DNA of 63,996 bases, filler included, from an uncultured Methanosarcinales archaeon (lineage in GTDB: Archaea > Nanobdellota > Nanobdellia > Woesearchaeales > CALCXY01), in assembly GCA_964385185.1 (NCBI GenBank). It is 3 parts of 3 records of this genome, joined end to end, with 100 filler letters (N's around TTAATTAATTAA, not from the genome) between each part and the next. Parts side by side here need not be neighbours in the genome. Positions count along the whole stretch, not along the records: positions 24,545 to 48,036 come from CAYLOA010000018.1; 2 more parts are not named here. One strand, 5' to 3'. Numbering within the stretch: the first letter of the stretch is position 1; every line of letters starts with the position of its first letter. A model generated the notes under the pieces. That model was not told where the DNA came from. It ran no database searches and saw nothing but the letters and a program-made list of their open reading frames with translations. Shown one piece after another: positions 7,170 through 48,136 of the stretch. The position numbers and the translations under genes were made by a program.

Positions 7170-7244
7170 GGGCCCGTAGCATAGTCTGGTTATTGCGCTG
7201 CTCTGATAAGGCAGAGATCGTGAGTTCGAATCTCACCGGGCCCA
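7170..7244 (+). tRNA. tRNA-Ile(GAT), intronless
   Basis: Acceptor GGGCCCG/CGGGCCC, anticodon arm CTGCT-CT GAT AA-GGCAG, T arm GTGAG-TTCGAAT-CTCAC, discriminator A. Confidence 0.96.
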
Positions 7245-7949: not shown

Positions 7950-8155
7950 TGTAAATCACAATTTATATTATTGATATGAATGTAATTTATTTTTTAAATA
8001 GTCTATGCGTGGTTGTCTTGTGGTTGTGGTTAAACTTTCCAAAACTAGCGGATACTCTTCGAAAATAATTATTTATTTATGTTAATTCTCTAAAGATTTA
8101 CAGTGTTGTGTGATTTGATAACCTTTATAATTAGAGACGGATTACCTATGAATAT

Positions 8156-8238
8156 GCCCCAGTGGTATAGTGGCGACTGCGTAAATCAGCTCGACACTTT
8201 GGACAACATCCTCGCAGGCTCGGAGTTGCCCTGCCTAC
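8156..8238 (+). pseudogene. tRNA-like 5' piece (split, nested or degenerate tRNA; identity unresolved)
   Basis: GCCCCAG TG GTATAGTGG resembles an acceptor 5' strand plus D arm; TATA-like tttataa about 30 nt upstream; T-run at 8239-8244; no local acceptor 3' strand. Confidence 0.5.
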
Positions 8239-8284
8239 TTTTTTCCATTACTTTAATAAATATTGAACGAGTTCCTCTTTTTAT

Positions 8285-8356
8285 GCCCCTGTAGTATAGT
8301 GGATAGCATACAAGCTTGCGGAGCTTGTGACCTGAGTTCAATTCTCAGCAGGGGCG
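8285..8356 (+). tRNA. tRNA-Arg(GCG)
   Basis: Acceptor GCCCCTG/CAGGGGC, anticodon arm CAAGC-TT GCG GA-GCTTG, T arm CTGAG-TTCAATT-CTCAG, discriminator G. Confidence 0.94.
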
Positions 8357-8357
8357 T

Positions 8358-8502
8358 TAGGGGACTGAGCAAAGCGATGTCCCCTATACTCGGCGGTTTG
8401 GGTTCTATCCTTTTTCAAAGGATAGTCTGAGTTCATGTCAGAAATCAAAGATTTCTGAGCATCTCGAGAATCTTCGATTCTCAAGACTTCCCCGCTGGGG
8501 CG
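8358..8502 (+). other. Multi-hairpin block ending in a tRNA-like 3' end (CCCCG CTGGGGC G)
   Basis: Hairpins TAGGGGAC/GTCCCCTA, CTATCCTTT/AAAGGATAG, TCAGAAATC/GATTTCTGA, GAGAATC/GATTCTC; 8495-8501 complementary to 8156-8162. Confidence 0.55.
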
Positions 8503-8518
8503 TTGGTTTATAGTTACA

Positions 8519-10075
8519 ATGGCTAACCTTAAGATTCCAGAAATAAGCAATGATGCAACAATCAATGTAGCTTTGGATACTATTAACAAAGGGAAACAGG
8601 CGTTAATATTTGTTAATTCTAAGAGAAGTGCAGAAAAGACTGCTGAGGAAGTAGGTAAAAAAGTAACAGGAGTTAATGAAGCTTGGAGTGTGTTGAGTAC
8701 TAAGGTTATGAAGGTACTTGCTAGCCCCACAACTCAGTGTAAACGATTATGTGGTTGTCTGCTTAAAGGGGTAGCATTCCATCATGCAGGACTTGCTGCA
8801 AAGCAAAGAGAGTTGATTGAAGATGGTTTTCGGGATGGAGTTGTTAAAGTGATTGCTAGTACTCCGACCTTAGCTGCTGGATTAGATTTACCTGCATTTC
8901 GAGCAGTTATTAGAGATTTGAAACGATTTTGTAATCGGGGAATGGCTCCTATACCTGTTCTGGAATATTTGCAGATGAGTGGTCGTGCAGGAAGGCCTAA
9001 CTATGATACCTTTGGTGAGAGTATTTGTATTGCTAAGAGTGAAGCTGAAAAGGAAGCTATCACTGAAGAATATATTAATGGTGATCCTGAGGAAATTTAT
9101 AGTAAGTTAGCTGTTGAACCTGTTTTGCGGACGTATCTTTTAAGTTTGATAGCGTCAAAATTTGTTCGGTCTCGTAAACAGATTTTAGAATTTTTTGGAA
9201 AAACATTTTGGGCTTATCAATATGAAGATATGGGTAAATTGGAAGAGATAATTGAACGAATGTTACAATTGTTGGAGGAATGGGAATTTATTAAAAGTTC
9301 TAAAGACGATTTTATTAGTGCCGATAATTTGGATAGTGTTACTTATAGGGCTACACTCATGGGAAAACGAGTTGCTGAGCTTTATTTGGATCCTTATACG
9401 GCAAACCAGTTGGTTGAGGGCATTAGGAAAACGCATTCAATTAAATATGGCGACTTTAGTTTCTTTCAGCTTCTTTGTAATACTTTGGAGATGAGGCCAC
9501 TCTTGAATGTTAGACAGAAAGAGTATGATATCGTTGAAGAGGCTATCATGAAGTATGAAGGGACGTTATTGGGTAGTGAGCCTGATTATTTTGATGATGA
9601 GCATGGAGATTATATGAAATCGATTAAGACCTCACTCTTTTTTATGGATTGGGTGGAAGAGAAGGGTGAGGATGCTTTGTTGGAGCATTATGGAATACGT
9701 CCTGGGGAGATTCGATATAAGTTGAACAGTGCGGATTGGTTATTTTATGCGATGGAAGAGTTGACTAGGCTACTTGGTTTTCATGATTTGATTAAAGTGA
9801 TTGGTAGGTTGCGATTTAGAGTTAAACATGGCATTAAAGATGAATTGGTTAGTCTTGTTCGGTTGAAAGGAATCGGTAGAGTGCGTGCTCGGAAATTATT
9901 TAGGAATGGGATTAAAGATGTTCGAGGGTTGAAACAGATTGATGTTGGTAGGTTGGGAGTGATTTTAGGAAAAGGTATGGCTGAGAAGATTAAGAAAGAG
10001 TTAGATCAAGATGTTTCAGTTGTTAAGAAAGGAACTCGGAAAGGTCAGACGAGTGTTGAGAAATTTATTAAGTAA
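8519..10075 (+). CDS. Hel308/Ski2-like helicase lacking the N-terminal RecA1 domain
   Basis: ALIFVNSKR, AFHHAGL, STPTLAAGLDLPA, QMSGRAGRP, C-terminal HhH GIGRVRAR; no Walker A or DExH motif. Confidence 0.85.
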   Translation: MANLKIPEISNDATINVALDTINKGKQALIFVNSKRSAEKTAEEVGKKVTGVNEAWSVLSTKVMKVLASPTTQCKRLCGCLLKGVAFHHAGLAAKQRELIEDGFRDGVVKVIASTPTLAAGLDLPAFRAVIRDLKRFCNRGMAPIPVLEYLQMSGRAGRPNYDTFGESICIAKSEAEKEAITEEYINGDPEEIYSKLAVEPVLRTYLLSLIASKFVRSRKQILEFFGKTFWAYQYEDMGKLEEIIERMLQLLEEWEFIKSSKDDFISADNLDSVTYRATLMGKRVAELYLDPYTANQLVEGIRKTHSIKYGDFSFFQLLCNTLEMRPLLNVRQKEYDIVEEAIMKYEGTLLGSEPDYFDDEHGDYMKSIKTSLFFMDWVEEKGEDALLEHYGIRPGEIRYKLNSADWLFYAMEELTRLLGFHDLIKVIGRLRFRVKHGIKDELVSLVRLKGIGRVRARKLFRNGIKDVRGLKQIDVGRLGVILGKGMAEKIKKELDQDVSVVKKGTRKGQTSVEKFIK

Positions 10076-18963: not shown

Positions 18964-21900
18964 TTATTGTAACTTTTTGTTTATTTTCTTTTTTAATGTA
19001 TTTACTTTCTTCTTAAATTTTCGTACATTATATTTTAATTTTTTTTGTATATTTTTATGAACTGCTTTTATTTTTTTAGTTGTCTTTTTCTGAAACTTCA
19101 ATTGTTTATTATTTATCTTAAAGGGGAGCTTTAGATTTTTGAACTTTACTGCATATGCACCTATTAATGTGAAGAGTATAAGTAATAAAATCAAAGTATT
19201 TTCGTTTAGCCTCCCTGTGAAATTAATAACATTGGCAAAGGCCTTACCAATCAGGTTTGAATTGGAGGAAAGGTGTGGTGATGTGTGGTCTGGATCTTGA
19301 GGGGGGGAATACATGCAAGATTGTTGAATTACTGGTACACCACTGCCACATGTGCCTCTTCGTATGCAAGATCGTAGTTGTGTGGAATCTATAGAGCATG
19401 GACCCCAAATAGAACAGTCCCATCTTGGTGTGCAAGTTGATCTTGAAGTGTGGCTGCCTGAAGTTGAAGAATCTGATGAAGTTGTTGTTGATAGTCCAGG
19501 TTCAACGTTTTCTGTACCGAATACACCAAATGAACTGAAGCTTGTGACATTACCCCAAACATAGTTTAGGTCTTCCTCTACCCCTCCTGGATCTAGGAGA
19601 TCCCACTCTGTGGCATTTTCATTATATTTGTAAAGTCTTAGAGTCGATTCCCTGAGATCTGAGTCTTCAATTTCTTCATCCGTATAATAAATTCTGACTG
19701 TAGCTGTTGTGATATTTTGATTAATAGCAGGATCAACTATAATGTCAATGTATTTTTTCAATTCAGTTACTGTTGTTGGAGTTGATTCCTTAGTATTGTT
19801 TGAATATTGGGCAATCCCCACAGATGCATTCTTAGATATTCCTGAAGAGATTTTTATCCATGTACCTGTTCTATTGGTGGAGTTTACAATAATCGATCTA
19901 TTTGCTCTAAAGCGTACTGATGAGTTCAAAGATGTGTTTATTGAATGAGTAGATAGCGCTACAATTGCACCATTTTCTTGTTCTTGATAATTTCCTGACG
20001 TATCATTTACGATAATATCTAGGACATATGTCCCTGATGATTGAGATGAACTATTCCAACTTCCATTGTATAAACCGTTTAATAAACCTAAGGTGATATT
20101 TAATGAACTATTTTCATCGGGTTTTTGAATATAAGCAGTGACAGTGGAGACGTTATGATTATCTGATGTGTTTACTGAAACATTAAAAATGGTTCCCTTA
20201 AGACCAATAGTAGGTGTAACATCAACTGTGTGAATTATGGGTTTAGTTGTATCTGTAACATTTACAAACATTATTTCTGAATTCTTTTGATTGAGAGTGT
20301 CATTTGCAGTTATGTTTAGCCAGTGATTTTTGAGATCTAAGAATGAATTATTTTGTAGAAGACCTGCGCAATCAATCTGGAAGTTCTCTGTATCATTAAC
20401 TGTGAAACAACTTACATTACTTGGATCGGATGCGTTTATATTGTGAGTAAATGATGTGTTGTATTCTATTGTAAGATTGTTAATATTGTCAAATGTTGGA
20501 GGGGAAATGTCTGGAGTAATATTCACCCACATAATTTCTGATTTGTTGTTGTCTGAGGTATCATTAACAGTGATGTTAAGATTGTAAATGGCTACATTTA
20601 GGATTGTGTTGTTTAGTAGTATACCGTCGCAGTCAATCTGGAAATTATCTGAATCATTTACTTTGTAACAATCTATTGCAATGTTATCGGATGCGCTAAT
20701 GTCATGGCGGAGGGCTGTTCCGAACTCTAGAGTTTGGTTGTTGATGTCATCTATTGTTGGAGGGGAAATGTCTGGAGTAATATTCACCCACATAATTTCT
20801 GATTTGTTGNNNNNNNNNNNNNNNNNNNNNNNNNNNNNNNNNNNNNNNNNNNNNNNNNNNNNNNNNNNNNNNNNNNNNNNNNNNNNNNNNNNNNNNNNNN
20901 NNNNNNNNNGGCGGAGGGCTGTTCCGAACTCTAGAGTTTGGTTGTTGATGTCATCTATTGTTGGTAGAATGCTATCTGAACCTGAAATGATTGAAACATT
21001 CCACCGAATCGTTTGGTTGTTAACTGATTCGTCGGATGTTTTATTTGTTTGGACATAGAATGTGAAGTTCCTTGCTAATTCACCTGTAGCATTTACCCAC
21101 CAAGTCACTATTTCTGACGTGGAGTTGGCTAGAGTTAGGTTGTAGGGATTGGATGTGTTTGTGAAGAAAGGGGTCGCTCCTGTGGTTTTGTTTATTAGTT
21201 GATTCTGTGAACAGTCACTACTACCTGTTGCTGCCCAGCAGATTGCTTGCTTTATAATTTGGGAATCATTTCCTGTTGTGCTAGGATAGGTATCTGCTGT
21301 ATCAAAGCCTAGATAGACAAATGTTCCTTGGTCGGTTCCTGTTGTTGCTGCCCCTTTTTCCACTACGAATCCCGCTATTTTGGCAGCTCCAGAGTCTTCT
21401 GGGGCAAAAAGTTTTGTATATGGATCTGTCATTTGGGCCTCTGTAAAAGAACAAAGGTCATCACTAGTAGAGTCAATATATACTGTTCCAGAAAATCCTG
21501 ACATGATGTTATGGTCTTGGATATCGATAATTTGATTGTCGGAGCTGTCTGTTGAACATGTTGCAGATGTGATTCCCATCCTTTCTGGAGTGTATCCTGT
21601 ATCTAGCGCAACAACTAATGGCATTGCTTCATCCTCAAATGCATCTCTTGCTGGGTCAGACGCTGAGTCGAATGCATAATACCCTACAAGATAATTTCCG
21701 CCCACTACCATTACGTCAAATGCTGAACTGTTTAGGGTTGCATCAGCCCATGAAGTGTATCTTTGGATTGTTATGTCAAATCCTTCGTCAATTAGGTATC
21801 CGCTAAGATCATCTGCGTCGCTACAGGATGAACTGTAACATAGGAATGCAACTCTCACATCACTCGTGTTTCCGTACTTGTTATAGAGACTGACATTTAC

Positions 21901-24444: not shown

Positions 24445-24544
24445 NNNNNNNNNNNNNNNNNNNNNNNNNNNNNNNNNNNNNNNNNNNNTTAATTAATTAA
24501 NNNNNNNNNNNNNNNNNNNNNNNNNNNNNNNNNNNNNNNNNNNN
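24445..24544. other. Artificial contig-joining spacer
   Basis: N-run with TTAATTAATTAA (stops in all six frames) at 24489-24500. Confidence 0.97.
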
Positions 24545-34626: not shown

Positions 34627-35232
34627 GTGAAACATAAATTTTTAAAAGAGGTGAAAGCAGACCATCATTTTATTCTTAAGACAGGTGAAGCCATCTCCAA
34701 TTTAGAAGATCTTCATAGTAAGTTGCGTGGTATGAATGAAGATACGTTTTCTCATCACGTGAATGACGATAAAAACGATTTTAAGAATTGGATTAATGAT
34801 ATTATCAAAGATAAAGACTTAGCTGAAAGTTTAGGGAGTATTATTAAGAAAAATGAAATGTTGCATACTGTAAAAGGTCGTATTACTCAGTTGAAGAAAA
34901 GACAGAAAGTACGGAAGACAACGATTAAGTTTAAAACTAAGGGAGCTAAGATTAAGAAAAAGAAGAAAACTGAAAAAGATATTTCTAAAGAGGTTGAAAA
35001 AGCATTTGATAAACATAAAGTGAAAGTTGTTGAGCCTGTTACCAAACAGGAATGGATTGGTGACAAGATGGAGAATATTGTGATGCAGATAGCTCAGAAA
35101 GTGGGCATGGTTGAAGAGGATCGTAAAGAATTTAGAGAAAAAGCTGAGATGATTAAAGGGATAAATGACTTCTTTCTCGGATTGATAATTGGTATTGTTA
35201 TTGGATTGGTATTGGCTCGGTTTTTGTTTTAG
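34627..35232 (+). CDS. DUF5752-like protein with C-terminal membrane anchor
   Basis: FILKTG...FSHHVNDDKNDFKNWIND; terminal FFLGLIIGIVIGLVLARFLF; GTG start. Confidence 0.75.
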   Translation: MKHKFLKEVKADHHFILKTGEAISNLEDLHSKLRGMNEDTFSHHVNDDKNDFKNWINDIIKDKDLAESLGSIIKKNEMLHTVKGRITQLKKRQKVRKTTIKFKTKGAKIKKKKKTEKDISKEVEKAFDKHKVKVVEPVTKQEWIGDKMENIVMQIAQKVGMVEEDRKEFREKAEMIKGINDFFLGLIIGIVIGLVLARFLF

Positions 35233-35454
35233 TTTTTATCGTCTATAGTTTTTGTATTTTTTGGAGAAGGTAAATATTCTATGATTATTGGAATTAATTT
35301 TGGAAAATTTACTAATAGTATGGTGAAAATTTACAAAAACCGTGTAAAAGTTTACAATTTTTTCTAGAAGATGTTATTAAGAATAAAAAGAAAGAAAAAC
35401 TATAAACCGACGTAGCCCGATATTTGTCGGGTGACTGAGGTTTATAAACTTTGT

Positions 35455-35572
35455 GCCGACGTAGCCTAACCAGGTAGGGCGACAAGTTGATACCTTGTTT
35501 ACCTCTCCCGGTTCTGCGGGTTCGAACTCGTATATTCAGTTCGAATTACGGGCGAAAATCCCGCCGTCGGCG
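35455..35572 (+). tRNA. tRNA with Ser-type body, GAT anticodon and T-loop BHB intron (35527-35558)
   Basis: GCCGACG TA GCC TAACCAGGTAG GGC G ACAAG TT GAT AC CTTGT [17-nt variable arm] GCGGG TTCGAA|T CCCGC CGTCGGC G. Confidence 0.85.
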
Positions 35573-35789
35573 CTTTTTCCTAAATGATTATTATTTTCTA
35601 TAACTCAGACTTTTGTCTGAGGAATAGAAAATTAAAGCTCATTCAAGAACTATATTTGATTTTAAGTTAACGAATGTACAGTAGCTTTTATTTTCTATAT
35701 GGTAATATATTAGTTTATTACTTCTAAGTGGTAAAAAGCACAAGGTTTATATAGGAGTAATTCGAGTAATATAAGAAGGGGGAATACCG

Positions 35790-36224
35790 ATGGATGATAA
35801 ACAACCTAAATATACTAACATAAAATTGGATGCTGTAGAGGGAGATTTTCAGGTTACAGAATATCCTAATAACATGATCATTAGTTATAGTCCTACCAAA
35901 AGTAAGGTAGAAGGAGAAGGAGATCGGATCTGGAAATTGAATGGGCATCATGAACTATTTTTTGCTGATGATAAATGTAGAACATTGAAGTATGCTCTCG
36001 ATACTAGAATATCGATGCCAGGAACAGGAAATGAATCTGGACCTATTATTGAAGATGCACCAGATCCACTTCCACATGTAATTCATAACCATATTGATGA
36101 TATTTTAAATAAAGTTGAAGGTCTTGGTCGACGGAAAATATTAATTTCAGAATTTTTAAGAGCACGGGTTGAAGAGAATCCAGAATATGATCCTTGGCCT
36201 AAAACACAAACTCCAAGAGGGTAA
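35790..36224 (+). CDS. Hypothetical protein
   Basis: 144-aa ORF with G-rich SD and upstream TATA-like tttatata. Confidence 0.7.
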   Translation: MDDKQPKYTNIKLDAVEGDFQVTEYPNNMIISYSPTKSKVEGEGDRIWKLNGHHELFFADDKCRTLKYALDTRISMPGTGNESGPIIEDAPDPLPHVIHNHIDDILNKVEGLGRRKILISEFLRARVEENPEYDPWPKTQTPRG

Positions 36225-48036: not shown

Positions 48037-48136
48037 NNNNNNNNNNNNNNNNNNNNNNNNNNNNNNNNNNNNNNNNNNNNTTAATTAATTAANNNNNNNN
48101 NNNNNNNNNNNNNNNNNNNNNNNNNNNNNNNNNNNN
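48037..48136. other. Artificial contig-joining spacer
   Basis: N-run with TTAATTAATTAA at 48081-48092. Confidence 0.97.

Follow-up and report, generated by a model that had tools for sequence, protein, structure and literature searches.

Which amino acid is delivered to which codon if the body of a tRNA points to one amino acid and its anticodon to another? This question is raised by a gene on the plus strand at positions 35455-35572 of the window, i.e., the whole stretch of 63,996 nucleotides analysed here, which derives from a metagenome-assembled genome (MAG) of the archaeal order Woesearchaeales. The gene codes for a well-formed class II archaeal tRNA with a serine-type body and a GAT (Ile) anticodon, and as judged from its sequence and those of its relatives, it is a real intron-bearing tRNA gene belonging to a conserved family of mismatched Woesearchaeales tRNAs. 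The interpretation favoured here, tentatively and with somewhat less than an even chance of being correct, is that it represents a functional, serine-accepting member of a tRNA-Ser-derived family, which would read AUY codons at a low or conditional level.

Structure of the gene and certainty of its sequence

The acceptor stem of the gene consists of seven perfect pairs between GCCGACG (35455-35461) and CGTCGGC (35565-35571), followed by the discriminator base G73 at 35572. A D stem of 3 bp (GCC/GGC, 35464-35466 and 35478-35480) closes an 11-nt loop (TAACCAGGTAG), the anticodon stem ACAAG/CTTGT (35482-35486 and 35494-35498) encloses the loop TTGATAC (35487-35493) with GAT at 35489-35491, and a variable region of 17 nt with an ACC/GGT pairing (35499-35515) leads to the T stem GCGGG/CCCGC of 5 bp (35516-35520 and 35560-35564). 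T stem and acceptor stem together form 12 of 12 pairs. The T loop is interrupted between tRNA positions 59 and 60 by a 32-nt intron of the bulge-helix-bulge (BHB) type (35527-35558). Exon 1 (35455-35526) extends from the 5' strand of the acceptor stem through the T-loop sequence TTCGAA; it is recognized by ARAGORN after splicing in the script, and scores 87.7 and 78.4 bits with two covariance models of the family (R1 and R3, respectively). Exon 2 (35559-35572) provides the last base of the T loop, the 3' strands of the T and acceptor stems, and G73. The central BHB helix is formed by TTCG (35521-35524) and CGAA (35553-35556), flanked by the bulges AA(C) and AAT, and removal of 35527-35558, with a cut after the second bulge base, restores the T loop TTCGAAT. 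The 5' bulge may be read either as AAC with an inner helix of 2 bp or as AA with an inner helix of 6 bp, the 3' bulge being AAT; because the 5' bulge consists of only 2 nt in the best-paired register, the element is classified as a slightly relaxed form of the archaeal BHB motif (a 4-bp helix, two 3-nt bulges, and flanking helices). The precursor folds with -46.7 kcal/mol (z = -3.84; 0 of 200 shuffles equally stable), and its minimum free energy structure contains the acceptor stem, the anticodon arm, and the T stem together with the BHB. An earlier note on this DNA had described the stems, G73, the variable arm, the TTGATAC loop, and the T-loop BHB, and every detail is present in the sequence; its view that a Ser-type body is combined with an Ile anticodon, with all stems and the splice motif intact, is borne out as well, the body being of the Ser type in its acceptor, D loop, long variable arm, and G73.

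The T loop GTTCRAAT, U33, a purine at position 37, the acceptor stem of 7 bp, and the T stem of 5 bp agree with the general tRNA cloverleaf (RF00005). The long class II variable arm and G73 are those of archaeal tRNA-Ser, but the anticodon is not one for Ser (NGA or GCU). Conversely, the gene shares GAU with class I tRNA-Ile, but departs from it by the 17-nt variable region and G73. An archaeal tRNA-Leu is contradicted by G73 and by a D loop with GG at loop positions 7-8 as in Ser, and a model of standard Leu tRNAs (R2) found no match on the gene at E values up to 10. Finally, the GAT anticodon, the 7/5 fold, and the D stem of 3-4 bp do not correspond to tRNA-Sec. In its unspliced form, the gene is called neither by ARAGORN nor by Rfam at the gathering score, the tRNA model of the latter giving a partial match of 23.1 bits below its cut-off of 29 bits. 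A genome-wide scan for BHB motifs yielded 259,342 candidates, each of which was removed in the script before ARAGORN was run; among the 17 resulting calls that span a junction, one is the gene at 35455-35572, read as an 87-nt tRNA with the anticodon gat.

The window is composed of several contigs of one MAG (G000; 1.30 Mb in 85 contigs, 35% G+C, rated 100% complete), which are joined by runs of N (including 20810-20909, 24445-24544, and 48037-48136). The gene lies on contig C18 (24545-48036), and features on different parts of the window, such as this gene and a tRNA-Ile at 7170-7244, are linked through binning only. It is very improbable that the gene merely represents a pseudogene in decay, an isolated C35A mutant of tRNA-Ser(GCT), or the product of a faulty assembly. 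Its surroundings, the least typical in the family (a promoter box A only 6 nt away, a missing leader-trailer helix, and an upstream partial copy of 11 nt, see below), would fit such an origin, as would a read check of four runs that left the anticodon uncovered, three of them yielding no contig and one covering 35577-35650 only. However, the stems are perfect, the BHB is intact, and the genome's own tRNA-Ser(GCT) has a different body. The identical TTGATAC loop recurs in family members from four other genomes (G017, G008, G052, and G101), and because independent MAGs carry it in the same kind of tRNA, an assembly error is unlikely. Moreover, 20 runs of 17 studies contain the stretch wholly or partly, and five runs from five studies, any of which may be the source of the MAG, contain 61 of 61 sampled words of 35200-35800.

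A family with A35 anticodons across Woesearchaeales

The genome contains tRNAs for Ser (GCT, GGA, and TGA), Leu (GAG), class I Ile (GAT), and Phe (GAA), all found by ARAGORN with introns allowed. Model R2 added Leu(TAA) on C51 and Leu(TAG) on C10, both of which contain two introns; the three Leu tRNAs all carry A73. Because these separate Ser and Leu tRNAs exist, the decoding of both amino acids is covered without the gene at 35455-35572, and the idea that the family substitutes for missing Leu tRNAs was discarded in view of the standard TAA and TAG genes. The separate Ser tRNAs, whose presence the earlier note had left open, are thus in place, and the tRNA-Ile(GAT) it had located at 7170-7244 proved to be real, namely a 77-nt class I tRNA called by ARAGORN and Rfam on a different contig of the same MAG. 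The three Ser tRNAs are closely alike and the body at 35455-35572 is strongly different from them, so the gene is no recent C35A copy of tRNA-Ser(GCT). That part of the earlier note has to be given up, also because the genome contains five such genes and the family with A35 anticodons occurs in at least 21 genomes. The four further Ser-like class II genes in the MAG are located on C37, C5, and C11 (all GAA, with G73, a Ser-type D loop, and a T-loop intron, plus a D-loop intron in the case of C11) and on C2 (GAT, with a Ser-type D loop and a T-loop intron); the last one has an irregular T arm and is doubtful, and its G73 is unsettled.

Model R1, built on the 5' 72 nt, was run over 100 relatives (the relatives available are one genome of the same genus, G001, and many single-genome families of one order), and model R3, built on 33 members, over 150 Woesearchaeales genomes. 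Since normal Ser genes score equally high with R3, which therefore failed to separate the two kinds, membership was decided by reading the sequences of 63 Ser-like matches from 41 genomes (top matches only in the 20 genomes other than those with family genes read). The A35 family accounts for 36 of these genes, spread over 21 of the 41 genomes and 19 family-level groups, while 26 are normal Ser genes and one (L190) is ambiguous. The same Ser-like body with GAT, as envisaged by the earlier note for related MAGs, is present in 15 of the 36 genes; the other anticodons are GAA (13), CAA (2), CAG (2), TAG (2), TAA (1), and AAG (1), the Leu-type ones amounting to 8. G73 is found in 36/36 family and 25/26 normal Ser genes, and a T-loop intron in 36/36 versus 3/26. 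The introns of the family range from 13 to 76 nt, the two longest parses being doubtful, and its variable regions from 15 to 23 nt, as compared to 14-17 nt in normal Ser genes. A perfect 4-bp central BHB helix at the same site and in the same register is found in 36 of 40 intron-bearing Ser-like genes compared, and T stem and acceptor pair in 12 of 12 positions in 28 of the 36 family genes. Strong covariation of the stems, in line with selection for the fold, is seen in an alignment of 33 members, which was fitted to the model: 98.3% of the cells are paired and 11 of 11 pairs have changed on both sides; none of 500 shuffles reaches the observed score, and slid controls pair to 30-47%. The family consensus of acceptor stem, D arm, and T arm is almost identical to that of normal Ser tRNAs (5' body, GCCG.GG T. 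GC. TAA..GGTA..GC G), and the family appears to derive from tRNA-Ser, retaining its identity set of a long variable arm, G73, and a Ser-type acceptor and D loop.

In a tree of 62 spliced genes with masked anticodons, from which L038 and L207 (both with a doubtful 3' end), the ambiguous L190, and the genes on C11 and C2 of the MAG were left out, one group (89/86, not starred) unites 23 of 34 family members, and the remaining 11 fall into the unresolved Ser backbone; a single origin of the family is neither shown nor excluded by these sequences. GAA and GAT genes of the same genome often cluster (in G008, G052, and G073), which fits an anticodon-blind synthetase. The GAA gene on C37 and its counterpart in G001 lie between the same genes.

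The family coexists with complete standard sets. In the closed genome G017, a family GAT gene occurs alongside class I tRNA-Phe(GAA) and tRNA-Ile(GAT), the latter with a 5-nt variable region and A73, and both are disrupted by introns. A replacement of class I Phe and Ile tRNAs by the family was therefore rejected, and the intron-bearing state of such genes explains why blastn found no class I Ile in several family-bearing genomes. The closed genome G085 shows an ordinary set (38 ARAGORN calls in 400 kb, including four Leu tRNAs with A73, four Ser tRNAs, and class I Phe and Ile), with no family member among its matches.

The fixed A35 bears on another explanation, by which the family would consist of harmless extra isoacceptors, charged either according to their anticodons (Ile, or Phe and Leu in the paralogues) or with Leu throughout, and causing either no changes at all or conservative ones from Ile or Phe to Leu. 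The synthetases of NUN codons use A35 as an identity element, and its presence in every family anticodon, the restriction of the set to Phe, Ile, and Leu codons, which is sensible for one hydrophobic amino acid, and the unchanged codon meaning (see below) all speak for such a role. A precedent is available in the nematode nev-tRNAs, which are class II tRNAs with Ile or Gly anticodons charged with Leu (PMC3333845). Nevertheless, this explanation appears rather improbable, considering that G73 is found in 36/36 family genes whereas A73 occurs in the Leu tRNAs read (three of G000 and four of G085) and in the class I Ile of G017. In addition, D loop and acceptor match the Ser rather than the Leu consensus, the loops of the variable arms lack a conserved motif such as the TTAGT of standard Leu tRNAs, and the Leu model failed on 35455-35572 as described above. 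Charging with Phe is further opposed by a T at position 20, as compared to G20 in the class I tRNA-Phe of G000 and G085.

Several observations on other tRNA genes were made along the way. Leu(TAA) (C51:2882-3042) and Leu(TAG) (C10:22025-22159) of the MAG are mislabelled by ARAGORN as Gln and Thr, a tRNA-Ala(TGC) at about 36250-36400 of C11 contains several introns, and searches of the MAG turned up no tRNAs for Asp, Asn, Lys(TTT), and some others despite its complete rating. In the whole closed genome G017, ARAGORN reports 15 tRNAs and Rfam 16 above its cut-off, and 59/60 T-loop introns occur there in many isotypes (Pro, Val, Asp, Gln, Glu, Arg, and Ile), all with the 3' junction ...GAAAG|T. 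On either side of an intact tRNA-Arg(GCG) at 8284-8357 (C17; region 8150-8540) lie what seem to be fragments of another Arg-like tRNA, namely a 5' fragment (GCCCCAGTGGTATAGTGG...) about 130 nt upstream and a matching 3' end (...CTGGGGCG) about 170 nt downstream; the intact tRNA may be nested in the intron of another one, or the fragments may be leftovers. Upstream of the normal Ser(GGA) and Ser(TGA) genes (C22:8400-8870 and C6:12600-13040) there are hairpin units repeating their first 12-14 nt, and downstream of them their last 14-15 nt recur in copies, each headed by a conserved leader of about 70 nt (...GTCAACTAACTTGTGTAGTTGT). A third piece resembles a 3' segment of a further Ser tRNA that has a T-loop intron of its own.

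Gene layout and a possible role outside translation

The promoters of the family genes are arranged differently from those of normal tRNA genes, in which the palindromic box A (TTTATAAA) ends 24-27 nt before position 1 (median of 25 nt in the MAG, with 12/18 at 24-26 nt, and of 26 nt in G017, with 7/8 at 24-27 nt). The median distance in the family is 16 nt, with 15/18 genes at 6-19 nt, and box A is located at 22-28 nt in 0/18 family genes versus 26/41 normal ones. A same-sense partial copy of the tRNA with a score of at least 28 is present upstream of 24/33 family genes compared to 5/24 normal Ser genes, and is absent downstream in 36/36 family genes. As seen at loci L031-L059 and L190-L221 of the relatives and on C37, C11, C2, and C5 of the MAG, the copy usually spans the anticodon arm plus the first (5') half of the variable arm, its end being 19-25 nt (in most cases 21-22 nt) left of box A, and the preceding 14 nt consist of at least 70% A in 19 of 25 family loci measured. 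Gene/copy differences are skewed, with (G,A) occurring 50 and (T,C) 20 times versus 9 times for (C,T) and 5 times for (A,G) (binomial 4e-10, with related loci not being independent). This is the pattern expected if a minus-sense RNA were to keep pairing with the tRNA, or within its own hairpin, via G-U pairs. Several copies carry compensatory changes that preserve their own hairpin, and the folds of five minus-sense stretches show a hairpin followed by an oligo-U tract (z between -0.8 and -3.5), so that the upstream copy looks like a putative divergent gene for a small antisense RNA.

Another feature of the family is a leader-trailer helix of 5-9 bp, which includes G73 and leaves exactly three bases unpaired before position 1. 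It is observed in 14/34 family genes, among them that on C37, and in 1/50 normal genes, with mismatched leader-trailer controls giving 7-16%. The gap of three bases resembles half a BHB, and the helix suggests that the leader is transcribed and that the ends are perhaps processed by the splicing endonuclease.

At the gene under study, a palindromic box A (TTTATAAA) is located at 35441-35448, 6 nt upstream of tRNA position 1. An 11-nt same-sense copy (CCGACGTAGCC) of tRNA positions 2-12 lies on the plus strand at 35407-35417, 23 nt left of box A; with a score of 22 it is weak alone, and it is arranged like the longer copies upstream of other members of the family. To its left lie an A-rich tract at 35383-35399 (oligo-T on the minus strand), which may be functional, and, after this tract, a second box-like CTATAAAC at 35400-35407. 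The minus-sense stretch upstream of 35455-35572 shows no structure (z = +0.85), and the antisense RNA idea therefore rests on the other family members. Downstream of the gene, a run of five T (35574-35578, plus strand) begins two bases past G73 and is a likely transcription stop, oligo-T serving as terminator in archaea. A perfect inverted repeat, CTCAGAC TTTT GTCTGAG, is found at 35604-35621, 32 nt downstream of the tRNA, and open reading frames (ORFs) start past it at 35724 (minus strand) and 35790 (plus strand).

The odd layout may alternatively be taken as a sign that these tRNAs, whether charged or not, are kept off the ribosome, acting as regulatory RNAs, as substrates of a tRNA-dependent transferase, or as the harmful half of a toxin-antitoxin-like pair with the antisense RNA. 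Apart from the unusual box A distance and the upstream copies, the lack of a fixed base at position 37 would agree with this explanation, and many of the bacterial allo-tRNAs, which are often encoded near toxin-antitoxin systems, are translationally inactive (PMC5389517). It is still considered unlikely, albeit worth serious attention, as T loop, T stem, anticodon loop (U33 and a purine at 37), and acceptor are of the working elongator type, and no partner enzyme was found. The anticodon is not drifting either, and because A35 is fixed, codon reading or recognition of the anticodon seems to matter. Furthermore, the gene at 35455-35572 is located in a 557-bp gap of a cluster for glycogen metabolism (glycogen synthase, GT4/GT5, GH57, three DUF5752 genes, GH15, and debranching enzyme) rather than in a mobile or defence island, with nothing mobile-looking around it.

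Charging, codon meaning, and relation to known systems

According to the favoured interpretation, i.e., a Ser-accepting tRNA reading AUY codons, the pre-tRNA would be spliced at the T-loop BHB intron (59/60) by the splicing endonuclease, and the mature 87-nt tRNA would be charged with serine by the single seryl-tRNA synthetase (SerRS) of the MAG, leaving the anticodon unread. G73 is part of the identity rule for Ser. Together with the long arm and a SerRS blind to the anticodon, it is the reason to expect serylation of the family and an ability to read NUN codons; the anticodon indeed does not specify the aminoacylation of tRNA-Ser (PMC6827378). The tRNA would then decode AUC and AUU in competition with class I tRNA-Ile(GAU), resulting at most in a low-level Ile-to-Ser ambiguity, or Phe-to-Ser and Leu-to-Ser in the case of the paralogues. 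The box A placed too close to the gene, the divergent antisense copy, and the universal T-loop intron may serve as elements of a tight control, as indicated by the odd gene layout.

One SerRS gene, located on C7, was found in the MAG, as were single genes for IleRS (C27), ValRS, LeuRS (C4), and MetRS, which were assigned from ORF size only. The N-domain of SerRS gives exactly one match in 94 of 95 matching genomes, with a second, weak match in G063, and the involvement of a second SerRS was rejected on these grounds. An ORF of 251 aa on a 2.5-kb contig (C64:613-1365) matches a class II synthetase core only (PF00587, 31 bits), lacks an anticodon-binding domain, and could represent a stand-alone aminoacyl ligase. 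A shifted anticodon register (TGA) or editing of A35 to restore a Ser anticodon was dismissed by reasoning, as neither one register nor one base change would account for GAA and GAT alike.

The meaning of the codons was examined in 166 conserved ORF pairs of the MAG and the fetched part of G085. TTT and TTC of the MAG align to Phe at 58-63% of positions, while ATT and ATC align to Ile at 51-52% and to Ser at 0.9-1.5%, like other hydrophobic codons. Conserved Ile positions are thus still occupied by ATT and ATC, and a reassignment of these codons was ruled out. Since AUY still means Ile in the proteome, the activity of the tRNA must be low or conditional; given how common and conserved its target codons are, the cost of full activity seems too high.

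These alignment values also weigh against any insertion of Ser at AUY codons, and they are joined by further objections. Ser would strike conserved Ile sites of the commonest codon, which looks costly, and the strict conservation of A35 is left unexplained by an anticodon-blind SerRS. Position 37 is either A or G within both the GAA and the GAT groups, which is unusual for working decoders. The gene at 35455-35572 itself groups with two CAA genes of G086 (96/95) instead of the GAT genes, and no orthologue of it was found in the same-genus genome G001, which is 77% complete. A DNA search of 60 relatives for an orthologue gave short partial matches only, and among 80 loci around GH57 homologues there was one model match (L080), a normal tRNA-Ser(GCT) whose D loop contains an intron, located some 2.8 kb past GH57 and not clearly at the same site. 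Moreover, the gene shows the family layout weakly, and with a box A at 6 nt, no helix, and a short copy it may be poorly expressed or decaying. Finally, there was no RNA run among the runs containing the stretch.

A more far-reaching proposal is a conserved two-part system of the Woesearchaeales, in which Ser-charged tRNAs for Phe, Ile, and Leu codons would each be paired with a divergent antisense "anti-tRNA", allowing a conditional, proteome-wide replacement of hydrophobic residues by Ser. The antisense RNA would start at the canonical distance from a shared palindromic box A, end in oligo-U, and bind both the anticodon arm and the variable arm of the cognate tRNA by pairing; release of this tRNA would represent a response to stress or starvation or a toxin-antitoxin-like switch. 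We consider this proposal doubtful and list it as a speculation.

Among the closest counterparts of the family are the allo-tRNAs mined from bacterial metagenomes, which combine Ser identity and a long variable arm with mostly non-Ser anticodons, including those for Ile, Phe, and Leu; in E. coli, some of them bring Ser to other codons, and what role they have biologically is not settled (PMC5389517). By its sequence, the tRNA at 35455-35572 shares their Ser identity elements and non-Ser anticodon. It differs by its canonical 7/5 arrangement of acceptor and T stem, as opposed to 8/4 or 9/3, and by its archaeal origin, T-loop BHB intron, and the A35-only anticodons of its family, whereas allo-tRNAs are bacterial, intron-free, and carry anticodons for 35 codons. 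Allo-tRNAs are also often found near toxin-antitoxin or mobile genes, in contrast to the ordinary chromosomal genes around the two family genes checked, those at 35455-35572 and on C37.

Another Ser-type tRNA with an A35 anticodon for a hydrophobic (Leu) codon is the tRNA-Ser(CAG) of CTG-clade yeasts, for which the codon usage sets the two cases apart: ATT, ATC, TTT, and TTC are among the commonest codons here, occupy conserved Ile and Phe positions, and have kept their cognate tRNAs (PMC2246281 for the yeast tRNA). The nev-tRNAs are likewise lineage-conserved class II tRNAs with anticodons (Gly, Ile) unlike their bodies, which coexist with the cognate tRNAs and are weakly expressed; they are derived from tRNA-Leu and charged with Leu, as opposed to the Ser-like body and G73 of the present family (PMC3333845). 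The human tRNA-Ser-AGA-2-3 G35A, a Ser tRNA with A35 which puts Ser at Phe codons, is a polymorphism of one species, while a conserved multi-gene family is found here (PMC12993449, PMC9956149). Disrupted tRNA genes with non-canonical introns, relaxed BHB motifs, and sets that appear incomplete with standard finders are known from DPANN archaea, including a Woesearchaeota genome; that work concerns intron positions and endonuclease types, and the available part of it mentions no mismatched class II family (PMC5829648). Likewise, no archaeal family of this kind was described in the full-text literature searched, subscription-only papers and supplements being outside its scope.

Anticodon-mismatched Ser tRNAs are thus already known as rare variants, from yeast code changes, and as bacterial allo-tRNAs. 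In the yeasts, the tRNA-Ser(CAG) arose from tRNA-Ser via an anticodon change, and the CTG codon was either reassigned or is rare and avoided at conserved sites. If the Woesearchaeales family is charged with Ser, it would target some of the commonest sense codons while the cognate tRNAs persist, and would, to our knowledge, be the first case conserved across a whole archaeal order. After splicing, the family genes would be annotated as tRNA-Ile or tRNA-Phe, and because standard finders miss or mislabel such genes, tRNA inventories and code predictions for DPANN archaea can be wrong. The family could blur the genetic code of these organisms, and if this is true, a natural and possibly regulated codon ambiguity would become testable in archaea by charging and proteomic assays.

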